Positions 4,143 to 53,399 are shown, counted from the first letter of the stretch. The stretch is DNA of 64,000 bases from Candidatus Omnitrophota bacterium (GCA_022711395.1 JAKLFA010000003.1:34509-98508); one strand, 5' to 3'. Numbers and translations are program-made. Notes: generated by a model from the sequence alone, not told the origin.

Positions 4143-4172
4143 TTTGCCTGGCCCCTCCCTAAAGATCGATCA

Positions 4173-4841: not shown

Positions 4842-4856
4842 GAATTTTTTTGAATT

Positions 4857-7580: not shown

Positions 7581-10421
7581 CTAAAACACGCTGTTGATCC
7601 CAAACCACACATGCGGATCTTCCTCAGAGTCATTCACCGCTTCCGCCACATCGACCCGGACCACCGCTTTTTCCAGAAATCCCAACAAATCCACATGGAC
7701 GCGGATGCCAAGTCCGACGTCCTTTTTAAGCTCTGAATCCGTAAACGAGCTGAACCACGCCTGACCCGCCTCGACAAAGGCCGCCCCGTCGATTTGACGC
7801 AACCCGAAAATCCTGTCAAAAACATACCAATCGATGTTCCTAACCAACGGGACGCGGTATTCCGCGACACCTAAAACGGCGTTAGCGCCGCGGACAGTCT
7901 TACGGCCATAACCGCGCAAACCATCGATCCCGCCAAGCTGAAAAAGGTCCTTGTCATCCGGATAACCCAGGCCGGCCTTAGCCCGCAAGGCCAGCTTTGT
8001 GTCCCCAACGACCGGAGCATAATAATGAACGTCTGCCCCACCGCGGTAAAAATACGATCCGCCATGCGCGAAATGCCCGGCCTGTTCGGCGAAACTGTTG
8101 ACCCGAAAGCCGCCTTTGGGATCAGGATACGGGCCAGAACGGTTCACGTGGTGCGAAACCCCGATGATCGATTCGCGCCGTCGTTTATATTCGATATTCC
8201 GAATATCCTCCGCGCCGGCCAGCCCTTCATCAAAATCCCCCGGCCGCTGATTGTGAATGAAATACAAACTCACATGGTCCTGGACGTCCATCATCCCGTA
8301 TTCCACCGGCCACAAATTACGCCTCATATAGATCTTCGTGCTGAACAGATCTTCCGGCCCGCCACTGGCGTCTTTCACATTGCGGACCTCCGCTCCCGCA
8401 TCCGTCGGAGAAGCAAAAACATTTTTCAATTGATAACCCGCGCGCGATGTCCACAGTTCATTTCCAAAATCATAATCGCTGCCCGTGTAAGCGACCGCTT
8501 TATAAGGCTTCTGAACACTGGCTTTTAGTCCGATCCCCTCATAGATCTCCGGCCCGACCACAACATTATACGAATCCTCCGGCAAGAAAAGAGGATTGTC
8601 CCAAAGGCCGAAATACAACGGCACCGGCTTAACACGTATCGCCCTGGGCCATTGATTATTGACCCTGTCCCTATCAAAAAATTTCTGCTCCGGGTCGATC
8701 GCGATCCGTTCCAACGGTTTTCCAAAATCAACGGCTTCCCGGGCGCGGCTTTGCCAGACACGCTTCTCATCCGTCCCGTCTCGGTATTCAACCGTCATCT
8801 CGACCGCATCCTGGATCTTCCCTGAGTTTTTCAAGACCGCCCGGCTGCCTCTGACGGCGTAAACCCCCGGATCAAACCCTTCAGCGGAAAACACCCAGTC
8901 CTGAAAAAACGCGGTGAGGTCTTTGCCCGACTCTTCTTCGCACATCCTTTTAAGACTTTCGATCGTCCAATTCCCGAAACGATGTTCCTCAACGACACGC
9001 GCCAGCACCCGGTCAAAGGCCTCTGCGCCGACCTGGCTTTCCAATGTTTCAAAGGCCCTGACGCCTTTTCCATAAACAAGCGCGAAGATCAGGCTCGGTT
9101 CAGAAAACCCATCCAGCGAACCGGCCAACGGCCCGTCGTAACCGGCATAGACCCCTGATTTATACCGGTAATCCCGCAATCGCCGGAACGAAGGGCTGGG
9201 AAAGATCCATTCATAATCTTTAAACCATTTCGGAAACTTGACAATGCCCGTGTCACGGCCGTAACGCTCTTCGATATACCTTAAGGTCAAAAAAGAATTC
9301 AGCCCCTCTTCCAGCCACATCTCGCGCTGTTCCTGCACGCCGACTATATTGTAGATCCACTGATGCCCGGTCTCATGAACGATCAACCATTCAAAATACT
9401 TGTCCAATAACCCCGGCAACTTAAAGGCCCGCGTATCAATGAAGATCATGTTCGGCATCTGCTCACCTCCGTAGCCCAGATGGACCGGCGCGACAGAGAA
9501 CTCGTCATACGGGTATCGCGCACGGAACATCCGCTCATAAAACTCCATCGCAGACTGCACATGTCGCAAGGCATCCTCCGCCCGTTTCAGATCTCCGTCA
9601 AGATAGAACACCCGGATGACCGTCTCATGATGCCTGCCCGTGATTTGTTTATACTCCGGGCTCATGGCAAATGAAAATGAACGCACCGGCAGAGACGCCT
9701 CAAGGACCATGGTCTTTTTACCGGCATCCGTCGTTTCTGACCTGAACGTTCCTGAATGGATCACGGTTTGACCTTGATCAACTTTTAATTCCACCCTGTA
9801 AGTCGACGCTTCTGAAAAGAACGGTCGGTGGAACGGATAAAAAAGCGACCGGTCCCACCCTTCGGCGGTCTGAACGGCCAGGATCGGATACCAATACGCC
9901 GCCTTCATGATCCCATCATTCCAGCCCAGCCGTCCGTAGGAACGTGCGAACTTAAATGAAAAATCCATCTCCAGGTCCATCTTCTGGCCGGGATCCAGGG
10001 GCCTGCTCAACATAACGCGCAGCAGTGTCCGGTCCTTGCCCTCGATCGAAAAAACAAGTTCCGTCCCGTCCGCGGCCTGAACGTTATGGACAGAAAAATG
10101 ATTGGACTGGAACCCTTGCGGGAACGGATCGACCTTGAAATAACCGGCATAACGCAAAAGGAGGGATTTTTCCTGCGGCGTATAATCCCTGTTGGGATAA
10201 ATATGGAAGATCGCCTCATTGATCGGCCGATCCTGACGGTTCGTGAACGAAACCCGCTGACGGGCGGTCAACATTCTTTCAGAATCATCGACGGATGCGT
10301 AAATCTGGTAATGATCCGGATTTTGAGCACGGGCACAAACGGGGCAAAAAACAAAGACGCCTCCTAAAATAAAGGCGCAGCATATTATTCTTTTGGTTCG
10401 GAATAAATTAAGAATGTTCAT
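7581..10421 (-). CDS. Fusion protein: signal peptide, then an M1-family gluzincin aminopeptidase-like domain, then a C-terminal Omp85 (bacterial surface antigen D15) beta-barrel.
   Basis: Signal peptide [33 protein letters not shown]. Zinc motif HETGHQW followed 18 residues later by WLEEG (HEXXH-X18-E). The C-terminal roughly 300 aa is a beta-barrel region (…[31 protein letters not shown]…FVEAGQAW…GLGIRV…) ending in …WFGINSVF with a terminal Phe. The start was chosen at the Met that begins the signal peptide. Confidence 0.65.
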
Positions 10422-10806
10422 GAGATACGGATTCTTCCGGGCGATTCTCGACTTTTGATAAGAACTTCTGAAAACCGGGGTCAGCCAACAGGTGTGCCAG
10501 GTCAGGATCGCTCCGCATAAATTGAAAATCATGATACCCGCACTCAACGGCAAGCTGCATCGCTTCCAAAGCCAGGTCCAGCTTCCGTAAAAGAGAATAA
10601 CTGCACGCCAGATTATACAAAGCGTACGGATCGTTCGGCCTCATCGACACGATCTGCTTATCGATCCGCAACCCGTCCTCAAAACGCCCGGCGCGCGTGT
10701 AAAGGTCCCCCAGAACCGAAAGTGTTTCAAAAAACTGCGGGCTGCGTTTAAGGACTCCCTCATAAAAAGGGATCTCAAAATCGAAATCTATTTTCTTCTC
10801 CGCCAT
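10408..10806 (-). CDS. TPR-repeat protein
   Basis: 132 aa with TPR-like helical repeats (YALYNLACSYSLLRKLDLALEAMQLAVECGY...). It overlaps the start of the downstream fusion gene by 14 nt, suggesting translational coupling. Confidence 0.55.
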   Translation of the reverse strand: MAEKKIDFDFEIPFYEGVLKRSPQFFETLSVLGDLYTRAGRFEDGLRIDKQIVSMRPNDPYALYNLACSYSLLRKLDLALEAMQLAVECGYHDFQFMRSDPDLAHLLADPGFQKFLSKVENRPEESVSHEHS

Positions 10807-20452: not shown

Positions 20453-23400
20453 CTATTCTGTCGCGACGTTCCAAGTCCCATCCATCTGGACTGCATATTT
20501 AAAAGTGATGGTCTTGGGATCCGAACCCGAGATGCCGGTGACCTCCATCTTGCCGTAATAGCCGTCATCGGTCCTAAACACGAACACCTTCCCAACTGAT
20601 ACTGAAAACCCCATCCCGTCCCAAGTAAAATTATATGTTGAGCTGTCCGGCGCTTCCGAAATCGCGTCAAAACTGTCCGATGCGGCTTTGAACCTGGCTT
20701 CCCGGATCGGCATCAGCCTTACATCGTCCGGATTGAATTGGATATCGTTCGGGAACGGGCAGTCTCCCAGGCTGACCCCATCGGAGAAATCGAAAAAGAA
20801 ATTATGATGAGTATAGGACGTGATCGATCCCGTTTTGACCGGCAGACCGGCCGTCTGCGGTGTCAGCTCCTGTGCCGGTTCCAGTTCCGATCCATCTCCA
20901 GACTCCAAAAGCCCGGGATCCCGTTTCTCATTGGCCTCGCGGATCTTTTCGACCATTTTAGATGACAATCCGCTGGCCTGCGCGACCTCCGGTGACAGCG
21001 ACGCAAACAACAGGTCCCCTCTTAAATTGTGCACAAGCATCTGCGCATCACCCAGGGTGAAGATCAGGGTGGTCTTGCCCGCCGCCTTCTGCAGCTCCCC
21101 GCTTGAACGCGCTGTCTGGCTCTTTTCCCATTTGACCTCAGCAATGAACTTGTCTTTCTGCTTTTCAATGCGGTTGATCCTCACCAGGATCTTCGTCCCT
21201 TGAAAGATCTCAAAATCGAACTGCGCGCCCGAAACAAGCGCTGATTTTCCTCCAAGGAACTGTTCTGATATCCCGTCACTGAACACGGAAAGATTGGCAG
21301 ACTCATAAGCATCCGCCAGACGTTGGATCGCCTCCACAACAAGCTGCTGATAGGACACATCCTTATACGTCAAAGATGACAGTTCAGGAAACGGGTTCAG
21401 CTCATATTTTTCTTCTCTGTCCGTGATAACGCGAAGACGAAGCAGATAGCCGGCATCGGGCAGCGGAGCGAACACGTATTTGATCTTCTGTGCCTTTGCG
21501 AGCGGCTTCCAAGTCCCCCCGCCATCAAGGGAGATCTGAACGCCCGCCACGCCTGTCATATGATTAAACGTTCCGGTGATCTCGATCTGACCGTTCTTAA
21601 GATCTTCTTTGGTAAACAAAACATCTCCCTTGAGGGACATGGGCGTAAAAGCGTTCAGCTTGACATCGCCCACCGAATACCCCTGCCGTCGCGCCTGTTC
21701 TTCCTGAACCTGTTCCTGCTCTTCCTGCGCCTTCTTTTTATCCGCTTGGGCCCTGGCCGCGGCTTCCGCCGCCGCCTGGTCCTGAAGTTCTTTATTTTTT
21801 AGAGCCATCAGCGCCTCGTTCCTGGCAAGAGCCAACCTCGCGACCTCGACGTACAGTCGCCCGAGATCATGCTGCAAGCGCGCATCGTTCAAGGCGGAAC
21901 GGACATTGTCATTCACCGAATAATCCGGTGCCGGCAATCCCCGCCCGGTTGTCTTTTTCACATACTCTTCCGCTGTGGCCATCCCATATTCCTTCGCCCT
22001 CTGTTCAAGCGCTGCGCGGTCACGGTCAGACATCGCGCGCAGCAGGCCCGGAACAAGATCAGCGACCTGCGCCATTTTCTGCTCGTAATCCGAAAACGGT
22101 TCCTGAAGAGAGGACAGGATCTTCAATGCCCCCTCCAGGTCGCTCTTATAAAGAATATGTCCCGACAAAGGAGAAACAAAGTTCGCTTCCCGCGCCGGCG
22201 TGACGTGCGACATCGACAGCATCGCTTGCATCGCCTTGTCATACAACGGAGCATATTGCTTGATAAATTCGTAACCCTTATAATTCGGCCAATCCCCGGC
22301 AATGTTTGAAGCATACGCGCTCAATTCACTGGCTGTCATCGCATGCGGGAACGGCTCGTTCTTCAAGGCCATCCCCTCAATGCGCTCTTTCGGTGCGGCG
22401 ATCTGATAACCGTTTGCCGCAGGTTCAAAATGGCCTTTTTTGACCTGCGCGTTGATGAACGCCTGAACCTCGCGCGATTTCTGCTGCAGCCAATACGCGT
22501 CCCGCTCGCGGTTCTCTCCATCGGTGGCGGATAATTGCATCAGCTCCCTTACCGAAGCCATCATGGCCTCACAGATCGCCGGCGTCGAGCTGGCCACACT
22601 GTCGATAGCGGCCATCCGCCCCCGCGGATCGAAACTGCCATCGATGAACGCCTGGATCTCCTTAATATCGTTCGGGCTCAAATCCGGGATTTTTTGCCAC
22701 TGCTCTACGGCCCTAAGCCATATTTTTTTCATGCGTTCGGCGTCAACCGCATACGCGCTCACCGCCGATGGGGCATACACCCCTGCCAGGATCTCCCCCG
22801 CCTTCATCTGAATAATATTAGGAAGCGACGGAAGCGTGTCGCCGTCGTTAGGGCCTAATTGCGCTACGGCGGTATGAACATTGTCCTTCAGGGCCTGCAA
22901 AGCGACATTGATGGAACTGATCACATGGCAGGGGTCCGCCAGCGGCAGCAACTGTCCCAACCTTTTCGGATCGCGCGCGGCGGTGACAGGAAGGTCGCGT
23001 TCGGCCGCGGCCATTGCGTCGTTATAAAGATTATATTGCCGGGCGCGGGCGCCGGCCAATCCGCCATAGGCAGATATCACTTCTTCGAGAGTCGCCATCG
23101 CTGACTGGTACTCAGCGTTCACTGCGGCAATAATGTTGTTCCTGACAATGTCCGCTTTCCCGTAAGCGACATTCAACCCATCCCTTGCGGCATCTGAAGC
23201 TCCGCCTCCAATAGGCTTCGGAGCCTTAAAGATCTTCTCTTCTGCCTGTTCTTGATAAAAACGGATCTCCACCAAAACGGCGTTGGACCACATCCGTCTT
23301 AGATCATTGGCCTGGCCAACAGCCCCCATATCAACAAGCTCCACACATTTTTTAACAAATGCTTTCGGATCGGCTGACGGCACGCCGCCGCCCATACGCT

Positions 23401-24790
23401 CCAGGACCCGACCCCAATCAAAGGGCTTAAGATATTGCTTAAACGCTGAGTAATACTTTTGCGCATACGAAATGACTTCCGGACTCGGCGGCGGAGTGTT
23501 GCCCCCTGCCGGTTGACTATCAACGACCTGCTCCGCAGCAGAGGCCGCCTGTGAAGCGTTCCGTCCAATAAAATCTTTTATCGTTCCTAGAACGGCGAGC
23601 CAGCCGTTCCGCGCGCCGCTCAATTGTTTCGCCAAAGCCTCTTCGCGCAAGATCGCAGCCCGGCCGCTCGCCTGCAACAGGTCAAGCGACCATGTGTTCG
23701 CCATGTCAAAAAGGGCCTGCGCCTCCGGCATATTTGCCGCGGTCAGGCCGTTGAAACGCTTTTGAAACTCATTTAAAGCGGCAGCGCTTTCTTTCACCAT
23801 GAGCCGCATCTCGGGAAGCTTCTTGATATATTCCCGGATGGACAAAAATTCATGGAACGCCTGTTCAAGGTCTTCATGATAAAATCTGCCGACACGGTTC
23901 GCGAAAAGCTGAAATTCCGCCATCATTTGACGCACGCGCGTCTGCCCCCAGGCGACCCGGGCTTGTTTATTGACATCCTTGATGAGCTGCGAGATCCACG
24001 TTCGGCCTTTATTTTTCCAGGTTGTCGCGAGGGCTTCGATCTCGGCGCTGCGGGCCGTGTCCTCACCGGAACCGACCGCCATCCAGCTCGCCGCGTATTC
24101 TGACCAGCTTTGTTCCGGCCATTCATCGCCAAGGACCTTCTCGACGTAGGACCTAAGCATCTGCCGGGCACTGTCGTTGGTCATCACATACTTATCAAAA
24201 AAATAATCCGCGCTGGCGGCGGTCTCCGGTATCAAGGCCGGTGAGTCGGCATTCGGATTAATGACACCCATCAAGCGCCGGTCATTGGACATCATGCCGT
24301 AGAGCGTTTCGATCTCCAGCGCGGCCTGGCTCGCCGCGACTTCTTTATGGGACTGATAGGTGAGTTTGGCCATCTGCCAGGTCACAGACACGAGCGGATG
24401 GTCGAGAACATCCGTGATCTGATCGACCGCTGTAATGAGCGCGTCATCATAACGTCCTTCGATGATCGCAAGGGCCGCTGTTTCAATGGCCTGCATCCGC
24501 TCGACGAATTTCTTGATCTTGTCCTTCGCCTTGACGATCTCGGCCTCATCGTTCTGGAAGATGATCCGTTCATAACCGCCGATCGAGTCCCACAGCCAGT
24601 CCGACCACTTGTCCTGCATGACGGACTTCAGCCCTTCTCCCACGCTCTTCTGTTCCGCCATGGCCTTGGCGACATCTAACCCAAGCTTGATCGGTTTTGG
24701 GGTATTATCCTCATCTTCGGCAAAAACGCTATGACAGAAAAAAACCGACAGAACCATTGCGGTGATAAAAGCTGTTTTCATTCTGTTCAT
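20453..24790 (-). CDS. Giant secreted protein B (1445 aa), family unrecognised, paralog of the gene at 24937..29352.
   Basis: Signal peptide MNRMKTAFITAMVLSVFFCHSVFA. The N-terminal roughly 250 aa are close to the paralog: RYDDALITAVDQITDVLDHPLVSVTWQMAKLTYQSHK... versus KYDDAAFAAIDQVVSTVNHPLVSLTWEMAKLTYESHK.... It is mostly helical, has a central Q/E/A/K coiled-coil region, and carries one Asp-box-like motif SLDGGGTWKP. An AAGAGGGG ribosome-binding site precedes the start. Confidence 0.7.
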   Translation of the reverse strand: MNRMKTAFITAMVLSVFFCHSVFAEDEDNTPKPIKLGLDVAKAMAEQKSVGEGLKSVMQDKWSDWLWDSIGGYERIIFQNDEAEIVKAKDKIKKFVERMQAIETAALAIIEGRYDDALITAVDQITDVLDHPLVSVTWQMAKLTYQSHKEVAASQAALEIETLYGMMSNDRRLMGVINPNADSPALIPETAASADYFFDKYVMTNDSARQMLRSYVEKVLGDEWPEQSWSEYAASWMAVGSGEDTARSAEIEALATTWKNKGRTWISQLIKDVNKQARVAWGQTRVRQMMAEFQLFANRVGRFYHEDLEQAFHEFLSIREYIKKLPEMRLMVKESAAALNEFQKRFNGLTAANMPEAQALFDMANTWSLDLLQASGRAAILREEALAKQLSGARNGWLAVLGTIKDFIGRNASQAASAAEQVVDSQPAGGNTPPPSPEVISYAQKYYSAFKQYLKPFDWGRVLERMGGGVPSADPKAFVKKCVELVDMGAVGQANDLRRMWSNAVLVEIRFYQEQAEEKIFKAPKPIGGGASDAARDGLNVAYGKADIVRNNIIAAVNAEYQSAMATLEEVISAYGGLAGARARQYNLYNDAMAAAERDLPVTAARDPKRLGQLLPLADPCHVISSINVALQALKDNVHTAVAQLGPNDGDTLPSLPNIIQMKAGEILAGVYAPSAVSAYAVDAERMKKIWLRAVEQWQKIPDLSPNDIKEIQAFIDGSFDPRGRMAAIDSVASSTPAICEAMMASVRELMQLSATDGENRERDAYWLQQKSREVQAFINAQVKKGHFEPAANGYQIAAPKERIEGMALKNEPFPHAMTASELSAYASNIAGDWPNYKGYEFIKQYAPLYDKAMQAMLSMSHVTPAREANFVSPLSGHILYKSDLEGALKILSSLQEPFSDYEQKMAQVADLVPGLLRAMSDRDRAALEQRAKEYGMATAEEYVKKTTGRGLPAPDYSVNDNVRSALNDARLQHDLGRLYVEVARLALARNEALMALKNKELQDQAAAEAAARAQADKKKAQEEQEQVQEEQARRQGYSVGDVKLNAFTPMSLKGDVLFTKEDLKNGQIEITGTFNHMTGVAGVQISLDGGGTWKPLAKAQKIKYVFAPLPDAGYLLRLRVITDREEKYELNPFPELSSLTYKDVSYQQLVVEAIQRLADAYESANLSVFSDGISEQFLGGKSALVSGAQFDFEIFQGTKILVRINRIEKQKDKFIAEVKWEKSQTARSSGELQKAAGKTTLIFTLGDAQMLVHNLRGDLLFASLSPEVAQASGLSSKMVEKIREANEKRDPGLLESGDGSELEPAQELTPQTAGLPVKTGSITSYTHHNFFFDFSDGVSLGDCPFPNDIQFNPDDVRLMPIREARFKAASDSFDAISEAPDSSTYNFTWDGMGFSVSVGKVFVFRTDDGYYGKMEVTGISGSDPKTITFKYAVQMDGTWNVATE

Positions 24791-24854
24791 AACCCCTCTT
24801 TTCGTTCAATACGAATTTGACCATGAACAGCAGGCAGAAAACTGTTAACAATCG

Positions 24855-24887
24855 AGAAAAAAGGAGATCTGATCGATCTCCTTTTTT
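24855..24887 (-). terminator. Strong rho-independent terminator between the two giant paralog genes. Stem GGAGATC / GATCTCC with a 5-nt loop, flanked by A8 and T6, so it is bidirectional in form.
   Basis: Read directly as aaaaaaaaGGAGATCtgatcGATCTCCtttttt, 50 nt downstream of the upstream paralog's stop codon (24937) and about 65 nt upstream of the downstream paralog's start (24790). Confidence 0.7.
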
Positions 24888-24936
24888 ATTAATGCTCTGG
24901 CCTTATCCTCTGGCGTCTTTCCCGGTCCCGCAGATC

Positions 24937-27900
24937 TTAGAAAAGCGAGAACGTCCCATCTGAAGTATCGCTGATGTTCGGATCCTCGACCGCCGTGATC
25001 CTGACCTGACAATTAGGAACAGGCGGAAGGAACCCATCGATATCCCATGAATACGTCCCTGCCGCCGCCGGTGTGGAAGCCACCAAAGGAACCCACCATC
25101 CTTCCCAATACTCAATTGAAACAGCCACAACGCCGGAACTGGTCCAGGTAATGTTCTGCGTTGATCCAAGGGCCCAGCTCTCTCCGCCATTGGGGCTGGT
25201 CACCGTGATCGAGGCCTCCTCATCATCCGATGATGATGTCACACCGCCTGAATCTTCCGTTGTGCCCGCACCGGGCTGCGTGGGATTGCGGTCATCGCGG
25301 GCCGTGCGGATCTCATCCACAACGCTTGAATTCTTTCCTGAAGCCTGCGCGATCTCCGGTGAAAGGGTGGCATAGATCAGATCTCCCCGCAGATTCTTGA
25401 TCCGCATCTTCCCCTCTTCCAGGACAAAGGTGAACGTTGTCTTTCCGCTGGTCCTTTGTTCCTCGCCGGTATTGCGGGGGGTCTGGGTCTTGTCCCATTT
25501 GGTCTCAACGACGAACATGTCCCCGCGCTGCTGGATCCGGTTAATATAGATCGTCAGACGGATGTTGATGAACATATCAAAATCAAACCGCACGCCTTCT
25601 TCAAGGGCGGACTTATTGCCAAGATAGTCCGATGAGATGTGATCACTGAAAACGGTCATGTTGGCCTGCTCATAAGCATCCGCGATCCGTTTGACCGTCT
25701 CCGGAACAAGCTGCTCAAAATCCACATCCCGATAGGTGATGCTGTCTACCATGCTGAAGATCCTGACCTGCGGCTCACGCTGATCCGTGGTCTTGATTCG
25801 CAAAATAAAATCATACTCCCGGTCAGGAAGCGGGCTGAAACGGACGCTGATATCCTGAGAAAGCCCGATATCCTGCCAGGTCCTTCCCCCGTCATCCGAC
25901 AAAAGGATCGTCTGCGCCTTATCGATCGTGAACAGCCGCGCTTCAATGATCATCTGGCCGGTGATCAGGTCCGCCTTTGACAGGATCACGTCACCCCGCA
26001 CATCCGCCATCGAACGGGAATTAAGTCTCGGATTCTCGATCGAATAACCGTAATAGGACGCCATCCCGAACGGGCCCGACTCATCGATCCTCCGTTCGCC
26101 TTCAGCGATCGCTTGGCGCATGGCCTCTTCATCCCGGCGCCGCATCTCCTCACGAGTCTGCTGCTCTAAGATACTTTGCTGCTCCATCACCGCTGCCGTA
26201 TGATGCCCTTCCACGAGCGCCTTGACCTTATCCCGCAATTCAAGATACTTTTTCCCCAGCTCATGGGTCCCCAGGCCGTCGCCGGCGAGGTCTATATCTC
26301 TCATGGTATAACTCGGCTGAGATAAAGACTTGCGCAAGACCTTCTTTTGGTACTCTTCCAATGTCATCCCATAAAGCTTGGCCTGTCTCTCATAATATGC
26401 CTTTTCATTGTCCGTTGCCACGTCCAATACATACGGCAAATATTTGGCAACCGCGGCTATTTGCTCTGTATAATCGTTCCCTGTCGGAGACATCTTCTTG
26501 ATCAGGTCTTCAGCCTTTTTCAGGTCGCTCGCATAAACGACTTCCGTGCGCACGATCAAATTTTCTTCCTTCGCGCCGCTGATCCCGGGAAGCGAAAGGA
26601 CCTTCAAAAGCGCCTCGTGATGGCCAGGCAAATATTTCTGCATGATCGCGAAAGCCGGAGAAGCCTTATAATCATCCATAATGGCCTTCTCGAGCGCATC
26701 AAGCTCCGCCTGTAACAGGTAATGCGGATACGGCTCATACGTCTTGACCATTCCGTTCTCGACCGGCCCGGGCAGGGCGACCTGCAGGGAACCCTGATCG
26801 TTCCTCAGCCGGCCTTTGTCAAACTGCTCTCTAAAAAAGCGGTCGATGACCCTGGCCTTCTCGATCAGCCAATACGAATCTTTGTCGCGGTTATCCCGGT
26901 CGGTTTCGGCAAGCTGCAGCTTTTTGTCCAGGATCGCCGTGATCCGGGCAGGGGCTGAGCCAGCGGCCACAACAGCCTCATTGATCGCTTTGATCTCTTT
27001 TTGAAGATCAAAGTCCGGCTTAACAAGGACCTGGATCTCCGCAATATCGGCATCATCGATCGGAGCCTTCGTGTTCCACATCTCAGAAGCCTGCTTCCAG
27101 GTGGAGAATAGTTTCTCATAGCTCCCTTTTTCCTCCATGACCCATGACGGAGAGGACCCTTGTGATGCCAGCTGTGTCGCAAGGCTGATGAGCGACGCGC
27201 CCGCGTAAACAGGATGGGGATTGTCTTCCCGTAACGGCGTGATATACGTGTGCGCTTCCTCGCCCATGCGCTTTAAATCGTCCTGCAGGCTGGAAACCAG
27301 CTGATCAACGTCCATCGGGATCGTCTTCCTGATATAATCCATCATTTCCTTGAGCTTGTCATATTGCTGCTTCCGGGCGTCCGCTAAGCTCTGAAACGCG
27401 TTCACCACTTCAGCAGCGGCGGAAATATTTTCAGAATAGGTCTTCTCCGCCATGACGGTCAAACGGCCCGCCGTTTCCTTAGCTTTAGCTGTTGCGGCAA
27501 CCCATCCATTCTGCACTGCAGCGCTTTCCTTTTGCAGAGCCCAGAGCCTGTTCTTAACCGGAGGGATCTGCGCGTCAAATGCCTGCATGGTCGCCGTGTT
27601 CGAATTTATGATCCGCTGACATTGCTCCTCACTGCCGTTTTCCGGGCAATTCGGAAGGCTCGCCACTAAAGCTGCCCGGGCCTTTGAAATAGTTTCAAGC
27701 TCTGCATAAATACCATTTAAAGCAGTGTTCATCGCCGCCGTCTTCTGCGCAAATGATTCTGTTTCCGGCACTTTGTCAAGGACGGGGGCCATGGCCGCCT
27801 TCCAATCATCAAAATGCTTCTTCGCCGCCCCCTGCCAGACGGAGTATATGGCCAAAGCCTCCGCAATATTCCCCATGTTGCATTCTTTTAAAAGAATTTC

Positions 27901-29352
27901 TTTTGTGCTTTCCACATCTCCAGAAAGAGAATACGTTGCCCCGGACTTGACCGTAACAGGATCCACATCAAAGATCCATTCCATTTCCTTCAAAGAAAAC
28001 TGCTTCGAAATATCCTCAAAGTATTGTTTCGCGTAAGGGATCATCATCTGATAAAAATCAGAATCTCCCTGCTGCGCGATCTCTGCAGAGATCTCATCTT
28101 TCGCGTTATTGACGACCTGGCCCTCCTGAGCCTCCATAAACTGTCCAAGCTGGTCCAAAAGCGTCTTCCACTGGGATTGTTCCTGCTTAAAACTGCCGGC
28201 CAGCCCTTTCTCATTGACCATCTCCGCCCTGGAAGAATACGACAGGCACTTATAATACCAGCCATCGGCGACATTCCTTAATCCGCCGACCGCCTTAAGG
28301 TCTTTCGGCTTTAACGCCGCGACCTTTGAAGAGACGTTCTTCCGTTCAGCCTGGCTTTGGGCCAGATAGCTCGGATACTGCGGGATCTCCTGCTGGATCT
28401 TCTTAATGTCCAGGAACTCTTTGAGCATCTGGGCGAAATCACCGTTATAGAAATGGCCCACACGCTCCGCGAACTTCTGGAACTCCGCCAACTGCTGACG
28501 GAGCCTCGTCTCAGCCCATGACTGCCTGGCCATCTTATTGACTTCTTTGATCACTTTCATGATCCAGGTTCGGCCTTTTTGGCGCCATTCATCGCCCATC
28601 ATCTCGATTTCAGCGCTCCGGGCGGTATCAACCCCCGAACCGATCGCTGCAAAGCTGCTGATCCATTCTCCCCAGCTTTGCTCTGGCCATTCTTCTCCCA
28701 ACACCGTGGTAACATACGCCTGCAACGCGGCCCGCGCGCTGTCATTGGTCATCACGTATTTGTTGAAAAAATAATCCGCGCTGGCGGATGTTTCCGGGAT
28801 GGTCGGAGGCGTGTCCGATTTCGGGTCGACCGTCCCCATCAAACGGCGGTCATTGTTCATCATGCCATAAAGCACTTCCACCTTCAGGGCGGCCCCGGAT
28901 TCCTGGACCATCTTATGCGACTCATAGGTCAGTTTTGCCATTTCCCACGTCAACGATACCAGCGGATGGTTCACGGTCGAAACAACCTGGTCAATAGCCG
29001 CGAAGGCCGCGTCATCATATTTTCCCTCGGTCATCGCGATGCAGAACTTTTCGATCTGACCGACAATATTAACGATATTATTGATCTTGTCTTTGACCAC
29101 CGGAAGGTCGGCTTCGCTGTTCTGGAACATGAATTTCTCCATCCCGCCGATCGCTTCCCACATCCAGTTGGTATATTCATCTTTGGCCGCGGTCTTGAGG
29201 CCCTTGACCACGTCTTTCTCAGAGGCCATGGCTGTCGCCGCACTGAGCCCCAGTGAGATCAGTTTTGGAGGGTCATCATCAGCGAACGCGCAACGGTTAA
29301 AGGCCACTGTCAAGCACAGCACAGCCAGCAAAAAACTTTTTCGAAATGACAT
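24937..29352 (-). CDS. Giant secreted protein A (1471 aa), family unrecognised, paralog of the gene at 20453..24790.
   Basis: Signal peptide MSFRKSFLLAVLCLTVAFNRCAFA. Asp-box-like motif LSDDGGRTWQD. Its unique C-terminal roughly 90 aa (GGESWALGSTQNITWTSSGVVAVSIEYWEGWWVPLVASTPAAAGTYSWDIDGFLPPVPNCQVRITAVEDPNISDTSDGTFSLF) resemble a Kre9/KNH-like GPI-anchored-family Ig-like domain. A GGAG ribosome-binding site sits 10 nt after the lipoprotein gene's stop. Confidence 0.7.
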   Translation of the reverse strand: MSFRKSFLLAVLCLTVAFNRCAFADDDPPKLISLGLSAATAMASEKDVVKGLKTAAKDEYTNWMWEAIGGMEKFMFQNSEADLPVVKDKINNIVNIVGQIEKFCIAMTEGKYDDAAFAAIDQVVSTVNHPLVSLTWEMAKLTYESHKMVQESGAALKVEVLYGMMNNDRRLMGTVDPKSDTPPTIPETSASADYFFNKYVMTNDSARAALQAYVTTVLGEEWPEQSWGEWISSFAAIGSGVDTARSAEIEMMGDEWRQKGRTWIMKVIKEVNKMARQSWAETRLRQQLAEFQKFAERVGHFYNGDFAQMLKEFLDIKKIQQEIPQYPSYLAQSQAERKNVSSKVAALKPKDLKAVGGLRNVADGWYYKCLSYSSRAEMVNEKGLAGSFKQEQSQWKTLLDQLGQFMEAQEGQVVNNAKDEISAEIAQQGDSDFYQMMIPYAKQYFEDISKQFSLKEMEWIFDVDPVTVKSGATYSLSGDVESTKEILLKECNMGNIAEALAIYSVWQGAAKKHFDDWKAAMAPVLDKVPETESFAQKTAAMNTALNGIYAELETISKARAALVASLPNCPENGSEEQCQRIINSNTATMQAFDAQIPPVKNRLWALQKESAAVQNGWVAATAKAKETAGRLTVMAEKTYSENISAAAEVVNAFQSLADARKQQYDKLKEMMDYIRKTIPMDVDQLVSSLQDDLKRMGEEAHTYITPLREDNPHPVYAGASLISLATQLASQGSSPSWVMEEKGSYEKLFSTWKQASEMWNTKAPIDDADIAEIQVLVKPDFDLQKEIKAINEAVVAAGSAPARITAILDKKLQLAETDRDNRDKDSYWLIEKARVIDRFFREQFDKGRLRNDQGSLQVALPGPVENGMVKTYEPYPHYLLQAELDALEKAIMDDYKASPAFAIMQKYLPGHHEALLKVLSLPGISGAKEENLIVRTEVVYASDLKKAEDLIKKMSPTGNDYTEQIAAVAKYLPYVLDVATDNEKAYYERQAKLYGMTLEEYQKKVLRKSLSQPSYTMRDIDLAGDGLGTHELGKKYLELRDKVKALVEGHHTAAVMEQQSILEQQTREEMRRRDEEAMRQAIAEGERRIDESGPFGMASYYGYSIENPRLNSRSMADVRGDVILSKADLITGQMIIEARLFTIDKAQTILLSDDGGRTWQDIGLSQDISVRFSPLPDREYDFILRIKTTDQREPQVRIFSMVDSITYRDVDFEQLVPETVKRIADAYEQANMTVFSDHISSDYLGNKSALEEGVRFDFDMFINIRLTIYINRIQQRGDMFVVETKWDKTQTPRNTGEEQRTSGKTTFTFVLEEGKMRIKNLRGDLIYATLSPEIAQASGKNSSVVDEIRTARDDRNPTQPGAGTTEDSGGVTSSSDDEEASITVTSPNGGESWALGSTQNITWTSSGVVAVSIEYWEGWWVPLVASTPAAAGTYSWDIDGFLPPVPNCQVRITAVEDPNISDTSDGTFSLF

Positions 29353-29362
29353 AGAGTCTCCT

Positions 29363-29827
29363 TTAAAAAGTAAAGATCGAATTCCCTTGAATTTTGTATA
29401 TAAGCCATTGACCGTTCTGATTTTGATAAACGGTCGTGCAACGTCCTTCTTTCAATATCAAGCTCCCCGTGGAGCGGCTTGCTGCTTTTTTCTGCCAGGA
29501 AAAAGTAACGGCGAGCTTTTGGCCCTGCATCAACGCCTTGTCGATCGTGAATGAAAAATTGAGCGGAGTTGCCGAGTGAAAGGACGCTTCTGTCTCGTTC
29601 AAAAACGCGTATTTGTCCGGCATGAACTCATCCGAAACGCGGTCGGAAAAATCCTGCCGTTGAAAACCGGCGAACAGGTCCCAATCCCGCTGAACAAGCT
29701 GCTGCGCCAGCGCCCTCTTATTAAGAGAAGGCCCCTGCTGCGCGGCAGGAACGGACCGGCCGCTCGCGCAGGAAGCGAGCAAAACGGAACACAATACCAA
29801 GCACCCGGGCCAAGAGATCTTTTTCAT
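29363..29827 (-). CDS. Small lipoprotein (154 aa)
   Basis: Signal peptide with lipobox MKKISWPGCLVLCSVLLASC. It is translationally coupled to the beta-barrel gene upstream (11-nt gap with a GAGGAAAAA ribosome-binding site) and to giant gene A downstream (10-nt gap). Confidence 0.65.
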   Translation of the reverse strand: MKKISWPGCLVLCSVLLASCASGRSVPAAQQGPSLNKRALAQQLVQRDWDLFAGFQRQDFSDRVSDEFMPDKYAFLNETEASFHSATPLNFSFTIDKALMQGQKLAVTFSWQKKAASRSTGSLILKEGRCTTVYQNQNGQWLIYKIQGNSIFTF

Positions 29828-29838
29828 GGATTTTTCCT

Positions 29839-31569
29839 CTAGAAATTAATAACACATTTCAAAATGAGCTGATGCTCTTTATAATTCAATGTGCCGTCTT
29901 CATGCATGTAACGGTTAATGTCCCCCCTGAGGACGATATGCCGGTCACGGTCCTTGCCCAGCGTCCAATCCAATTCCATGAACGAACGGTTGTTGGTGTA
30001 ATCCGCGTTGGCCTTGGCGTTATTGCTGTCCATCAAATTGTGCCCGAACCGGGTCAAAAAATTCTTTGAAATATCGTATTGCCCGGAAAACCCTAACGAG
30101 GCGTTGACGTCATAATTATCATCTGTCTTGATCCGCCGGAAATCCATGCCCGGATTAAGGGAAAGATACAGGCGGCGAGCCACAACATAATATTCCCGGG
30201 CAAAGGTCATCCCCAGACGGTTGAAATAATCCGACGCGCTTTTATCATGCCGGTTGCTAAAGGCCCGGTACTGATACGAAAACCCGACATCCGTTTCTTT
30301 GAACCGGTCATAGAGCCCAAACCCGGAGGTAAATGTGCTGCTTTCCAGCGTGTTGGCAACATCATCGGAATTGCGTAAATTATATCCTGTGTTCAGGCGC
30401 ACCCGAAAAGTCTCGCGGGAGGCTAACGGCAAAAAATTCATCGTCACGCTTTTTTCATCATTGATCGTCCGTTTTGTGCGCGAACTGCCGGTCAAATGGT
30501 CCCAATAATAATTATGCAAAAGCGACACGGACGCCCGTTTGCTGAAGCGATGGTCCACGGTCGTCTGATGCTGGACCTTATCCGGCGAGGCGGAACCCAC
30601 GTCCGCATAAAACTGCGGCTGCGTGTAACCGTAAAGATGCCGCACCGTGGTCTTGCCGAACTTCAGCTGAGGCGTCACCCTCAAGGCGTTGCCGTAGCTC
30701 TGGTCCTTGACCGTTGCCGAATCCTCATCCGCCAGATACATACTGCGGGCCAGTTCATAGTTCAGGGAAAAATACCGGACAAACGCCAGGTCCCCGTCGA
30801 CCGAAAGGACGCTGTTGCGCAGGTCCGTAAACGATGAGGTCCGGTCAGGGTCCGAACTGTCATCCTGCACGGTCACCGCCTGAAAACCAAGCCGGGAATT
30901 GGAGACCGTTTCGGAATCCTTGAACCAGAACGTGTCGAATTTTGTCCCAAAGACATTCCGTTGAAACGTTGATGCCGCCTCATCAGGACCATCCTGACGC
31001 GCCGCGATGTATTTCATGGCAAGGGTTTCGTTGGGCTTGACCTCAGCGGTCAACCCTTCCAAAGACGATCCCATAGTCAAAGGGCTCAATTCGCCATAAA
31101 AATCCCCGGCAAGGAACAGATTGTCGGGGTTGGAAACTTTCAATGAATATTCTTTGATGCGGACATCCCTTCGGGGCTCTATGCGGGGATTGTCGGTCTT
31201 GCGCATCATGAGCTGGCCTTCCATATTATAATCGCTCCACAGCTTTTCCTGCATGTTGAGGTCCATCTCGGTCAGATAATCCCATCCTTTATCAAGGAAT
31301 GATTTTGACTTGTTGCCGCTGACCTTATCATACTCCGCCTGGGTGAGAACAGAACCGCTGATCCGGCCGGAGCGCTCGGACATGGGGCGGTCAGAACTGA
31401 GGTCCATCAGGTCCTTAAAACGCTGTGAAAGCGGATAGCTCTTATTTTGCTCTGATTTTTCTCCGCCGCCATTGCCAAAATAATAGACCTCAGCGGAAAA
31501 GGCGTAAGGTGTTGAAAAAAAACAGCATAGAACTGAGAACAAAACTAATTGGTAGATAGTTTTTTTCAT
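29839..31569 (-). CDS. Outer-membrane beta-barrel protein (576 aa), family unrecognised
   Basis: Signal peptide MKKTIYQLVLFSVLCCFFSTPYAFSA. Alternating hydrophobic / Y,R,N,D,S,T-rich beta-strand pattern throughout, with a C-terminal ...ILKCVINF ending in the aromatic residue typical of the outer-membrane-protein signature. An AT-rich promoter region lies upstream at 31570..31673. Confidence 0.7.
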   Translation of the reverse strand: MKKTIYQLVLFSVLCCFFSTPYAFSAEVYYFGNGGGEKSEQNKSYPLSQRFKDLMDLSSDRPMSERSGRISGSVLTQAEYDKVSGNKSKSFLDKGWDYLTEMDLNMQEKLWSDYNMEGQLMMRKTDNPRIEPRRDVRIKEYSLKVSNPDNLFLAGDFYGELSPLTMGSSLEGLTAEVKPNETLAMKYIAARQDGPDEAASTFQRNVFGTKFDTFWFKDSETVSNSRLGFQAVTVQDDSSDPDRTSSFTDLRNSVLSVDGDLAFVRYFSLNYELARSMYLADEDSATVKDQSYGNALRVTPQLKFGKTTVRHLYGYTQPQFYADVGSASPDKVQHQTTVDHRFSKRASVSLLHNYYWDHLTGSSRTKRTINDEKSVTMNFLPLASRETFRVRLNTGYNLRNSDDVANTLESSTFTSGFGLYDRFKETDVGFSYQYRAFSNRHDKSASDYFNRLGMTFAREYYVVARRLYLSLNPGMDFRRIKTDDNYDVNASLGFSGQYDISKNFLTRFGHNLMDSNNAKANADYTNNRSFMELDWTLGKDRDRHIVLRGDINRYMHEDGTLNYKEHQLILKCVINF

Positions 31570-31673
31570 ACCCTGTCCTGTTTGGTGAGTGATAAAAATG
31601 GAAATATGAAATATTATATATAGAAAAAATATAAAAACAAATGAAAATTATCGCTTTTTTACTGAAACAGCCT

Positions 31674-32531
31674 TTAAAAAATGTGCTGAACAATATAATC
31701 CGCAATATACTGATTGGCCTTGAAATTCGGATGCGAGTCATACCTGCTGATAGCATATTGACCGGGGTCTTGCTGATATCCCGGCAGGATATCCTTGATC
31801 TGATGCACTGTGATCCCCGCGCGCTGAAAACGTTCCAGGAGGTCCTCGTCACGCTCCACGTGCTTTTTATTATGACTATCCCGCGCCCCCCAATAGACCA
31901 CATGAAATTCCAACCCGGGAAATTTATCCTGCAGGGCCTCTTTTGCAGAAAGAATGATCGCAAGATAAGTTTTAAGGTCCTTTTCACAAGCAGGGTCGCA
32001 CTCTCTAAAAAACCTCTGATAAACAGCGCTTTTCTGAAACAAACGCCTAAGGATCATCCGGCACTTATGATCATCAAAACGACCGTCATGAACGGACGCT
32101 CCGGCGGGAGACAGGACATAGTGCGGGCCATGGCTCCCCCACCACTTTTTCCCCGCAGCCCGGGACACATGGGAAAATTCCGTCTGAAAGATCGCGTATC
32201 GTGGCCGGCAGCGAACAGCCCCGTCAACAACTCCATGCTCGATCGCGCTCAGCATCTGATGGGGCCCATAACCATGAAACCCGAAATTATAGGTCTTCCT
32301 GTTGGAGATCTTCCCGGCCAGATAAGGTATGGTTTCCTCATCCTCCAGCCCCTCTCCGAAGGTCATGGAACATCCAAAAAACAAGACCGCCGCATCGCAT
32401 GGCTCCGTCGCGGCCGCGAAAGACCGTCTCAATCCGTCCTCATCGATCGAATAGGTCACATCATAGACCGTCTCGTTATTGCAAACCCGACGGACCCTGT
32501 TGCGCGTGTTGCGGGCCGGCACGGTCCCCAA
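31674..32531 (-). CDS. SGNH/GDSL-type hydrolase (putative esterase / O-acetyltransferase-like). Its N-terminal membrane-anchor region appears to be cut off by an in-frame TGA.
   Basis: Block I FFGCSMTFGEG (Ser in a GDS-like context) and a C-terminal catalytic RYDSHPN (D..H). The track ORF starts at a TTG at 32531. The upstream in-frame sequence encodes hydrophobic segments with no start codon (see finding). Confidence 0.6.
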   Translation of the reverse strand: MGTVPARNTRNRVRRVCNNETVYDVTYSIDEDGLRRSFAAATEPCDAAVLFFGCSMTFGEGLEDEETIPYLAGKISNRKTYNFGFHGYGPHQMLSAIEHGVVDGAVRCRPRYAIFQTEFSHVSRAAGKKWWGSHGPHYVLSPAGASVHDGRFDDHKCRMILRRLFQKSAVYQRFFRECDPACEKDLKTYLAIILSAKEALQDKFPGLEFHVVYWGARDSHNKKHVERDEDLLERFQRAGITVHQIKDILPGYQQDPGQYAISRYDSHPNFKANQYIADYIVQHIF

Positions 32532-33183: not shown

Positions 33184-33192
33184 AAAAATCAA

Positions 33193-33275
33193 GACACAGA
33201 ACACTAGACACAGGACACATAAAAACCACAAACCAAACAAGGCCCTACCGCTCCCTGTGTCGTGTGTCGTGTGTC
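33193..33275. repeat. Heptamer-array inverted element A. Left arm GACACAG-AACACTA-GACACAG-GACACAT, 34-nt spacer, right arm CTGTGTC-GTGTGTC-GTGTGTC. Lies between tRNA-Asp and tRNA-Val.
   Basis: Tandem 7-nt units read directly. The arms are mutually reverse-complementary, forming an imperfect long hairpin. Confidence 0.7.
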
Positions 33276-33286
33276 ATCGTCGTATA

Positions 33287-33469: not shown

Positions 33470-33550
33470 GACACCAGACACACGACGCATGACACAGGAA
33501 AACCTCAAATTTTCAACCCCCCTTGTGTCCTGTGCCCTGTGTCTTGTGTC
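33470..33550. repeat. Heptamer-array inverted element B. GACACCA-GACACAC-GACGCAT-GACACAG, 25-nt spacer, TTGTGTC-CTGTGCC-CTGTGTC-TTGTGTC. Lies 17 nt downstream of the atpK stop codon.
   Basis: Read directly. Same unit family as elements A and C. Confidence 0.7.
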
Positions 33551-33566
33551 AGCTCGCAGATGCAAA

Positions 33567-45864: not shown

Positions 45865-47142
45865 TCATCTCTCAAAGACCACTTTGCCGCCACAGATCGT
45901 TTTTTCGACCAAACCGTGCAACTTCCATCCAAAGAACGGAGAGTTCTTTCCCTTGGAAACAAAATCCTCTTTGCGAACCTCCCATTCAGCCTCAGTATCA
46001 ACGATCACCAGATCAGCATCGGCGCCCTCTTCGATCCTGCCTTTATTTTTAAGGCCGGCAATTCGCGCGGGGGATTGGCACATTTTATCCACTAAACCGG
46101 CCAAAGTCAAAACCTTTGTGCGGACCAGATGGGTCACGCAAAGACCGAACGCTGTTTCAAATCCGGAAATGCCAAACGGCGCGTGATCAAACCCCTCTTC
46201 TTTATCCTCCAGCGTGTGCGGGGCATGGTCCGTTGAAACGCAGTCCAGCGTCCCATCGGCCAGCGCCGCCTTGATCGCCTCCACATCGTCCGCCGTCCGC
46301 AAAGGCGGATTGACCTTGGTGTTGGGATCAAAGCCCTTCACCGCCTCATCGGTCAGCGTGAAATGATGCGGACAGGCTTCCGCCGTGACCCTGACGCCCT
46401 GGGACTTGGCGAAGCGGATCAATTCACAGCTGCGTTTTAAGCTGATGTGGGACAGATGGATCCTCGCCTGCACATAATTGGCCAGTTCGATATCCCGTCC
46501 GACTATCACGGTCTCAGAAACGCCCGGGTCCCCGCGCATTCCCAGGACACTGGCGGTTAAACCTTCATTCATCACGCCCTTGCCGCTGATCAAAGGGTCC
46601 TGGCAATGTTCCATCAAAAGAAGCCCGACCATATCGGCGTAACGTAAGGCCAAAAGCATCAGCTGGCTGTTATTGACCGCCTTCCCGTCGTCGGAAAGAG
46701 CCAGGCATCCGGCGGCCTTCATTTCATACATGTCCACCATTTCCTGGCTGTTCTGCCCTTTGGAGATCGCGCCCACAGGATACACGTTCGCCAGCCCGAC
46801 GCGCCTGGCCTCCTTGATCACGCCCTCCACGATCATCCCATTATCGATCGGAGGCCTGGTGTTGGGCATACAGAACAAAGACGTAAACCCGCCCTTGACC
46901 GCCGCCCGGCAGCCCGTCTCGATCGTTTCCTTATGCTCCTGACCGGGCTCACGCAAATGACAATGCAGGTCGATAAACCCCGGCAGGACCTTTTTCCCGG
47001 AGGCATCCACGACCTTCACGCCATCCGCGGAAAGATCCTTGCCGATCTTTTCGATCGTCGAGCCCTTGATCAAAATATCCTGAGATGCCTTTTTTTCACC
47101 GTCGGCATTAACGATCACAGCGTTCTTGATGAGTAATGACAT
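45865..47142 (-). CDS. pyrC: Dihydroorotase
   Basis: 425 aa amidohydrolase. Metal ligands DLHCHLREPG and ...DHAPH..., plus the carboxylated-Lys region. Confidence 0.85.
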   Translation of the reverse strand: MSLLIKNAVIVNADGEKKASQDILIKGSTIEKIGKDLSADGVKVVDASGKKVLPGFIDLHCHLREPGQEHKETIETGCRAAVKGGFTSLFCMPNTRPPIDNGMIVEGVIKEARRVGLANVYPVGAISKGQNSQEMVDMYEMKAAGCLALSDDGKAVNNSQLMLLALRYADMVGLLLMEHCQDPLISGKGVMNEGLTASVLGMRGDPGVSETVIVGRDIELANYVQARIHLSHISLKRSCELIRFAKSQGVRVTAEACPHHFTLTDEAVKGFDPNTKVNPPLRTADDVEAIKAALADGTLDCVSTDHAPHTLEDKEEGFDHAPFGISGFETAFGLCVTHLVRTKVLTLAGLVDKMCQSPARIAGLKNKGRIEEGADADLVIVDTEAEWEVRKEDFVSKGKNSPFFGWKLHGLVEKTICGGKVVFER

Positions 47143-48729: not shown

Positions 48730-48952
48730 TTCTATACATCACAAGCTGAAAATTTTTAAAATTTTTCAATCTCATTGGATCCTTTACGGCCTCACAGGAC
48801 CGCTTTAAAGGTTGTATATTGATGCAAATATAGCACTTCCGATGCCATCTGTCAAGCAAATGAAAAATCCGCTTCACGAAAAGAAAACGCTTCCTAAATA
48901 AGTGGATTCGGAATTGAAGTCAAAATCGTTATATACTATACTCATATTAACT

Positions 48953-53395: not shown

Positions 53396-53399
53396 AGAC

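Follow-up and report, generated by a model that had tools for sequence, protein, structure and literature searches.

A 64,000-nucleotide stretch of DNA from a Candidatus Omnitrophota bacterium (GCA_022711395.1 JAKLFA010000003.1:34509-98508), referred to here as the window, carries a cluster of four genes for an outer-membrane beta-barrel, a small lipoprotein and two large secreted paralogues, giant A and giant B. These genes also occur together in other genomes, keeping their order in about 40 loci whose other neighbours are unrelated, and they probably encode a new cell-envelope machine, the function of which we infer. Our preferred reading, held tentatively and at somewhat less than even chances, is of a self-contained outer-membrane complex of a new family that docks or exports helical proteins and displays their C-terminal domains. 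No description of the module was found in the literature on Omnitrophota outer membrane and giant proteins, on 26-stranded barrels with lipoproteins or on Thermodesulfovibrio outer-membrane proteomics.

Gene organization of the cluster

A preliminary description, made by a model from the DNA alone, had proposed a tightly coupled four-gene operon. Open reading frame (ORF) calling and translation recovered all four ORFs in the order that it gave, head to tail on the minus strand at 20453-31569. These are the barrel gene (29839..31569, minus strand; 576 aa), the small lipoprotein gene (29363..29827, minus strand; 154 aa) and the genes for giant A (24937..29352, minus strand; 1471 aa, secreted, with 25 homologues) and its secreted paralogue giant B (20453..24790, minus strand; 1445 aa). 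All four products start with a signal peptide, and none contains a CxxCH motif or a second hydrophobic segment. Isoelectric points set the acidic giants (pI ~5) apart from the basic small protein (pI 9.3).

The gaps of 10-11 nt with ribosome-binding sites that had been proposed hold for two junctions, of 11 nt between barrel and lipoprotein and 10 nt between lipoprotein and giant A, both preceded by a purine-rich, Shine-Dalgarno-like site (AGGAAAAA, AGGAG), but not for the third, where 146 nt separate giant A from giant B. A terminator-like hairpin lies between the two giant genes (24857..24887, minus strand; 13-bp stem followed by a U-run), with a folding energy of -18.7 kcal/mol (z -4.56) that none of 200 shuffled sequences equalled. 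Because of the long gap and this hairpin, giant B is not tightly coupled to giant A, and its expression is probably lower than, or separate from, that of the upstream genes.

Conservation of the module across genomes

Genomic contexts were collected for five giant homologues and for 34 species-level loci found with the barrel, and were scanned with hidden Markov models (HMMs) of the three families. Nearly every locus with enough DNA reads barrel, small NTF2-like protein and then one to three giants, with gaps of 10-17 nt or overlapping genes; an additional giant is encoded upstream in some loci, and two metagenome-assembled genomes (MAGs) contain two systems each. Across about 39 informative loci, from Omnitrophota, one Thermodesulfovibrio genome and unidentified lineages, a gene with an NTF2 domain directly follows the barrel without exception. 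Most named homologues come from Candidatus Omnitrophota MAGs, one partial protein being 100% identical. Chance adjacency is excluded by this co-occurrence. Clustering of all ORFs from 38 loci brought out no further recurrent gene family and, since the neighbours also differ between genomes, the module appears to be self-contained. Phage tape-measure or tail proteins and defence systems were rejected, as neither gave a library match above threshold, and a multihaem conduit was rejected because the components lack CxxCH.

An exhaustive search of 1.84 billion representatives with an HMM of the giants' N-terminal domain returned 83 proteins, so that this family, like that of the barrel, is small; every one is secreted, has 1,100-1,600 aa and bears the domain N-terminally. 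A homologue search with this domain alone added only two new fragments. The layout varies in a few places: the small protein is absent from locus L012, and a divergent secreted protein replaces the giant in L022. In the latter, an Omnitrophota locus, the product of 3882-5534 (plus strand) has a mature N-terminus, AEDVYYLE..., that resembles the barrel motif AEVYYLG.

Loci L006, L041, L043 and L044 hold a split form of the module, made up of a 513-533-aa barrel, a second protein (400-456 aa) with immunoglobulin (Ig)-like, NTF2 and C-terminal domains, and a third (~1,150-1,180 aa) with the N-terminal domain, helices and a further NTF2 domain; the small NTF2 protein is additionally present in some of these loci. 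L044 was assigned to Thermodesulfovibrio (Nitrospirota) from the RefSeq names of proteins encoded nearby; its barrel falls in cluster WP_297210966.1, and the accompanying proteins have 1,180 and ~450 aa. GC content in the remaining split loci is 33-60%. In L043 (3379-4641, minus strand) and L044 (3534-4844, minus strand), a divergently transcribed gene directly upstream of the barrel gene encodes a polytopic membrane protein with a C-terminal LuxR/GerE helix-turn-helix, possibly a regulator of the module in the membrane. The split system of Thermodesulfovibrio is followed by eight consecutive same-strand genes without a Pfam match (L044:11612-19486, plus strand; 174, 436, 241, 195, 187, 143, 735 and 469 aa) that might extend the module there.

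The outer-membrane barrel

The barrel protein consists of a signal peptide, a conserved N-terminal extension of ~45 aa (AEVYYxG...) and 26 strands at aa 68-575, and ends in an aromatic residue (...VINF), as had been noted. Its AlphaFold2 (AF2) model is a 26-strand barrel (predicted local distance difference test, pLDDT, 88.6) with loops of at most 14 aa and no plug domain. A homologue search gave a family of 65 clusters at 90% identity. Neither the barrel nor 54 of its homologues matched a curated family above threshold, PF10082 (BBP2_2) matching only two of the 54, and the family profile found no match among PDB sequences.

Residue conservation is higher on the lumen-facing side than on the lipid-facing side (0.69 vs 0.51, p 3e-9) and higher in the putative extracellular loops than in the periplasmic turns (0.60 vs 0.48), with putative extracellular loops L7, L8, L1 and L3 the most conserved. 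Conserved outer loops and a conserved lumen would be expected if a conserved partner covers them. In all solved barrels known to us with at least 22 strands, a plug or partner protein occludes the lumen, as in TonB-dependent transporters, ushers, LptD-LptE and MtrB-MtrA. With 26 strands and no plug of its own, the barrel can reasonably be expected to hold a partner protein in its lumen.

The small NTF2-like protein

The 154-aa product has the lipobox that was first described for it (LLAS|C). It is homologous to giant A aa 1215-1327 (BLASTP, E 2e-8), and an HMM of its family matches every giant with E 1e-11 to 1e-18. The NTF2-like segment suspected in the giants is present as a predicted domain, although all library matches to NTF2 or DUF4440 are below threshold. 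DUF4440 (PF14534) matched the small lipoprotein with E 0.003, and DUF4440 matches span E 0.002-0.003, at 18 bits against a cut-off of 25.2. Five of 21 orthologues match DUF4440, one SnoaL_2 and one SnoaL_3, and the family profile weakly matches NTF2-like PDB entries (3rob E 0.06, 3soy E 0.93). The NTF2 assignment thus derives from recurrent sub-threshold matches to DUF4440, SnoaL and NTF2-like PDB entries, and we treat it as predicted.

The large secreted proteins

Both giants are helical proteins of ~160 kDa that begin with the Sec-type signal peptides proposed for them, of the signal-peptidase-I type without a lipobox, and have no further hydrophobic segment. The name needs some care: at 1,445-1,471 aa they are large, yet below what is called giant in Omnitrophota, where the term is used for ORFs >20 kb and proteins >6,000 aa (PMC10066038). 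Their homology had been thought to be confined to the N-terminal third. It is nearly full-length: identity is 41% at aa 1-516 and 32% at aa 610-1357, and the main difference between the two lies in the C-terminal domain. As proposed, they belong to no recognisable family: nothing rose above threshold in Pfam, NCBIfam, PHROGs or PADLOC, and no S-layer, adhesin or toxin family and no solved-structure relative was found in curated libraries and structure searches. Profiles of the N-terminal domain and the helical region had no match among PDB sequences, and library searches detected no peptidoglycan-binding domain (OmpA, SLH or LysM).

From the N-terminus, the order is signal peptide, N-terminal domain, a helical region of ~780 residues, an Ig-like sandwich, an NTF2-like domain, a conserved NPxQPGAG motif, a Ser/Thr/Asp-rich linker and the C-terminal domain. 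In giant A, the N-terminal domain spans aa 26-320 (28393..29277, minus strand) and carries the family signature HPLVS.TW..KLTYESH...NDRRLMG...DYFF.KY...WPEQ; it is the most conserved part of the giant family (0.6-0.76), with many invariant polar residues, and was modelled at low confidence in the AF2 model of aa 1-1200. The long alpha-helical region that follows in this model (aa 321-1100; 26053..28392, minus strand) has a pLDDT of 85-93, and its centre is the least conserved part of the protein.

Beyond the helices, aa 1101-1205 (25738..26052, minus strand) form beta strands in the AF2 model, and Foldseek gave Ig-like matches of high probability that are non-significant by E-value (E >=0.1). 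This domain contains SDDGGRTW, giant A's copy of the single Asp-box-like motif that had been noticed in each giant (Pfam BNR E 0.038 and 0.28, below threshold). A sialidase-like BNR/Asp-box propeller was rejected, as there is one motif per protein and it lies within the Ig-like sandwich. The NTF2-like domain of giant A, paralogous to the small lipoprotein, covers aa 1215-1327 (25372..25710, minus strand), and the aligned region in giant B covers about aa 1150-1262 (21005..21343, minus strand). The near-identical giant B orthologue P0018, in the syntenic locus L005, matches the small-protein HMM with E 7e-16.

Exchangeable C-terminal domains

The giants end in one of two domain types. Type 1, at aa 1380-1471 of giant A (24940..25215, minus strand), is Ig-like and weakly Kre9/KNH-like (Pfam Kre9_KNH E 0.018, below threshold) and is also found in P0001, P0003, P0004 and P0009. 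Type 2, a domain of ~125 aa carried by giant B (aa 1301-1445; 20456..20890, minus strand) and by most relatives, is HmuY-like. Its family profile matches the PDB entries 8b6a (Bacteroides fragilis HmuY-Bf2; E 6.4e-9), 6eu8 (E 4e-4) and 3h8t (HmuY; E 9e-4). Pfam HmuY (PF14064) matches five of 15 type-2 members (best E 3.6e-5), while giant B alone gives E 0.025 and 15.1 bits against a cut-off of 27.

No column of haem-ligating His or Met is conserved in the type-2 family alignment. Such ligands are also missing from some true HmuY proteins, including 8b6a, which binds protoporphyrin without iron ligation (PMC12106395). HmuY proteins have been described with a hemophore-like role, several binding modes and an adjacent TonB-dependent receptor (PMC12106395).

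Comparison with known barrel systems

The defining signatures and domains of LptDE, Slam, Omp85 and two-partner secretion (TPS), usher and MtrAB systems were tested and not found, which places the module outside them. By analogy, it would work most like LptD-LptE or MtrB-MtrA, or like an usher with its plug in trans, and its gene logic would resemble that of two-partner or Slam systems. The preliminary description had likened barrel and lipoprotein to LptD/LptE- and Slam-type translocons and proposed that the pair brings the giants to the surface. A conserved functional module is supported and membership of those translocon types is not, while surface export of the giants, as judged from sequence, is plausible.

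The likeness to LptD-LptE lies in a 26-strand barrel without its own plug and a small (~150-aa) co-encoded partner that could sit in the lumen. The AF2 model has the strand number of LptD; the LptD signature (PF04453) and OstA (PF03968) were not found. Similarly, the small protein has no match to LptE (PF04390) and weak matches to DUF4440 and SnoaL instead, and fewer than half of its orthologues have a lipobox; LptE is always a lipoprotein. MtrB, of the MtrB-MtrA(-MtrC) system, also has 26 strands, but here the MtrB_PioB signature (PF11854) and a multihaem partner were not found, the components lack CxxCH and the partners are helical.

Fimbrial ushers (FimD/PapC; PF00577) differ in having 24 strands, an internal plug and N- and C-terminal domains; the plug and the terminal domains are missing here, as are a periplasmic chaperone and pilin-like cargo; sequence identity is 9%. 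The module shares the gene logic of TPS and Slam, with a dedicated barrel gene beside one or more large Sec-dependent cargo genes and a cargo N-terminus that is most conserved, as the TPS domain is. However, the barrel has no POTRA domain and 26 strands in place of 16, no Omp85 family (BamA/TamA/TpsB; PF01103, PF07244) was matched, and the cargo is alpha-helical where that of TPS is beta-helical. Slam (type 11; DUF560, PF04575) combines a 14-strand barrel with TPR and lipoprotein cargo, whereas this barrel has 26 strands, no TPR and no Pfam match, and its cargo is not a lipoprotein.

Two further systems resemble single parts. The C-terminal domain of giant B matches 8b6a, 6eu8 and 3h8t and so recalls the HmuY-HmuR system of Bacteroidota, but here a ~125-aa domain ends a 1,445-aa protein, the barrel is not a TonB-dependent transporter and giant A has an Ig-like domain instead. 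NXF1(TAP)-NXT1(p15) also combines a large protein containing an embedded NTF2-like domain with a small stand-alone paralogue; it is a eukaryotic nuclear export factor, and the likeness is one of principle only.

A proposed mechanism

In the model that we propose, Sec would export all components, and the 576-aa protein would fold into a 26-strand barrel without its own plug. An NTF2-like module, either the small downstream protein or the homologous domain of the giants, would occupy or cap the lumen. Since the known solved barrels of at least 22 strands are occluded, this one should be as well, and the NTF2 module, which has the right size (~130 aa; LptE has ~170 aa) and is invariably co-encoded, readily suggests itself for this role. 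The giants, one to three paralogues per locus, would dock to the barrel complex through the N-terminal domain, the NTF2 domain or both, and would be held at the outer membrane with the long helical body as a stalk. The exchangeable C-terminal tip, HmuY-like in giant B and Ig-like in giant A, would be displayed on the outside of the cell.

The stand-alone NTF2 protein, lipid-anchored in this genome, probably pairs with the NTF2 domain of the giants as an adaptor or plug. Homo- and heterodimers are common among NTF2-like domains, NXF1-NXT1 being an example, so such pairing may be expected. It is supported by the split form, in which each polypeptide has its own NTF2 domain, as though pairing stood in for a covalent link. 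A conserved N-terminus, a variable centre and a C-terminal domain that is swapped between paralogues and orthologues fit anchored, outward-facing giants, and the finding of one to three giants per barrel fits one translocon or anchor for several clients. Characterised HmuY proteins, lipoproteins exposed on the cell surface, act together with an outer-membrane barrel; this, like the conserved outer loops, favours display of the C-terminal domain. That the products form one physical complex, that its lumen is occupied, that parts of the giants are exposed and that these bind a ligand, we infer.

Several points weigh against this account. Just two domains, the HmuY-like and the NTF2-like, have relatives at the family level, and both assignments are below curated thresholds for the window proteins; the lipobox, missing from more than half of the orthologues (present in ~14 of 33, the remainder having ordinary signal peptides), is not a feature of the whole family. 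Higher conservation of the lumen is common among barrels and not specific. The role given to the giants' N-terminal domain is a guess, because that domain was modelled at low confidence. In L030 and L009 no recognisable giant follows the small protein, and L024 and L037 have only the barrel and a ~445-aa protein. The module encodes no energy source or periplasmic chaperone, and we know of no barrel through which a helical protein of 160 kDa is exported. Moreover, the module is found in free-living Thermodesulfovibrio, which speaks against its being specific to the epibiotic or predatory life proposed for Omnitrophota.

A fuller version of the proposal is possible but doubtful, namely a new outer-membrane secretion and anchoring system in which an NTF2-gated 26-strand barrel exports, or is threaded by, helical proteins of ~130-170 kDa with interchangeable ligand-binding tips. 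Such a system would be fused in Omnitrophota and split in Thermodesulfovibrio (Nitrospirota) and further lineages.

Alternative explanations

The main rival of surface display is a periplasmic or trans-envelope scaffold, which we consider rather unlikely. The giants would then be periplasmic, with the barrel and the periplasm-facing NTF2 lipoprotein holding them against the outer membrane from within, as a strut to the peptidoglycan or inner membrane; a threading variant would place the NTF2 domain alone in the barrel and the C-terminal domain alone at the surface. Such an arrangement would need no export energy source, which the module does not encode, and would suit the rod-like helices, the default orientation of lipoproteins towards the periplasm and the occurrence of the module in a free-living sulfate reducer. 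It sits poorly with the greater conservation of the putative extracellular loops over the periplasmic turns (0.60 vs 0.48), and the variable centre and swapped C-terminal domains of the giants are more typical of exposed proteins. A scaffold is also disfavoured by the lack of any detected peptidoglycan-binding domain of the OmpA, SLH or LysM type.

Ligand uptake is an improbable alternative, in which the tip would bind a tetrapyrrole or scarce hydrophobic nutrient, the NTF2 cavities would pass it on and the barrel would import it, as a TonB-independent analogue of HmuY-HmuR or BtuG-BtuB. The conserved lumen and the match of the type-2 domain to HmuY structures (8b6a E 6.4e-9) argue for it, as does the action of HmuY proteins beside a large outer-membrane barrel (PMC12106395). 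However, the haem-ligand His and Met are not conserved, and giant A, like the sole giant of some loci (P0004 in L001), has an Ig-like tip in place of the HmuY-like one. No plug, TonB box, ABC importer or riboswitch is present in or next to the module, and ~1,100 helical residues would be left unexplained. As general background, NTF2-like folds often bind small hydrophobic ligands, which would suit uptake, and their cavities can hold lipids.

A released effector or toxin is less probable again. The giants would be secreted to the medium or onto host or prey cells, for example as alpha-helical pore formers, with the barrel as the secretion pore, a picture to which the helical cargo and its multiple divergent paralogues lend themselves and which would suit the epibiotic or predatory life proposed for Omnitrophota (PMC10066038). 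A very weak Foldseek match to XaxA (probability 0.16) also points this way but is non-significant, and hydrophobic helices, toxin-family matches and an immunity gene were not found. The module is, moreover, present in free-living Thermodesulfovibrio. Very improbable, finally, is an LptD-LptE-like lipid or glycolipid insertase, in which barrel and internal small protein would place an envelope lipid in the outer leaflet, with the giants as periplasmic bridges; strand number equal to that of LptD, a small and sometimes lipidated protein co-encoded with the barrel and NTF2-like cavities able to hold lipids would agree with it, but the LptD and LptE signatures are missing.

Significance

Very wide outer-membrane barrels are known from very few families, each of which, to our knowledge, has defined a major process: lipopolysaccharide insertion, pilus assembly, extracellular electron transfer, or gliding and type 9 secretion. 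Here, a plug-less 26-strand barrel family is modelled with confidence and the components lie outside described families. Should the complex prove real, barrel-partner machines would gain a new kind, and there would be a first handle on the cell surface of the Omnitrophota, an uncultured phylum whose ultra-small members are thought to live attached to other cells. If the secretion reading is true, large folded helical proteins would have a new route to the diderm surface that does not use Omp85, secretin, usher or type 9 systems. Thermodesulfovibrio has cultivated members, so laboratory testing would be possible if a cultured strain carries the module.

Transcription signals and flanking genes

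The AT-rich promoter region proposed upstream is present: the ~100 nt 5' of the barrel gene are AT-rich, include a perfect TATAAT and form the putative promoter and 5' untranslated region of the cluster (31570..31680, minus strand). A consensus promoter scan called no minus-strand promoter upstream of the barrel gene, because the -35 element is weak, and no riboswitch or other known RNA from Rfam was found upstream of the cluster. Both flanks hold housekeeping genes, with ssb, a pyridoxal phosphate enzyme and ilvD downstream, and tRNA-Asp, tRNA-Val and a V/A-type ATPase operon upstream.

Just upstream of the cluster is a 285-aa ORF (31674..32531, minus strand) with no Pfam match and a terminal D-S-H-P-N motif that recalls SGNH hydrolases. 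It is preceded by a short ORF with a membrane helix, starting at ~32863 in another frame, such that a frameshift or misplaced start is possible, and it is not kept beside the module in other genomes. Further upstream, GACAC/GTGTC-rich inverted repeats at 33190..33276 and 33470..33551, with arms of 22-27 nt and 81-91% complementarity, flank tRNA-Val. One separates it from tRNA-Asp and the other is upstream of tRNA-Val; they may represent processing stems or else a small repeat element.

Other features of the window

Three other regions of the window may be of use to future studies. A 990-aa ORF (7581..10553, minus strand) combines Peptidase_M1 (aa 328-553, E 3e-18) with an Omp85 barrel (aa 699-951, E 7.6e-12) and would be an unusual metallopeptidase-barrel fusion. 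Three consecutive large ORFs (48902..55685, plus strand; 782, 714 and 761 aa) belong to no Pfam family, the middle one weakly matching the LbR_Ice_bind beta-roll, and may be another envelope or secreted set. A PyrR binding-site RNA (RF00515; 48695..48815, minus strand), which at 64 bits exceeds the gathering score, precedes a run of minus-strand ORFs, one of them for a dihydroorotase-like amidohydrolase (45865..47142), and together these look like a pyrimidine-biosynthesis operon.

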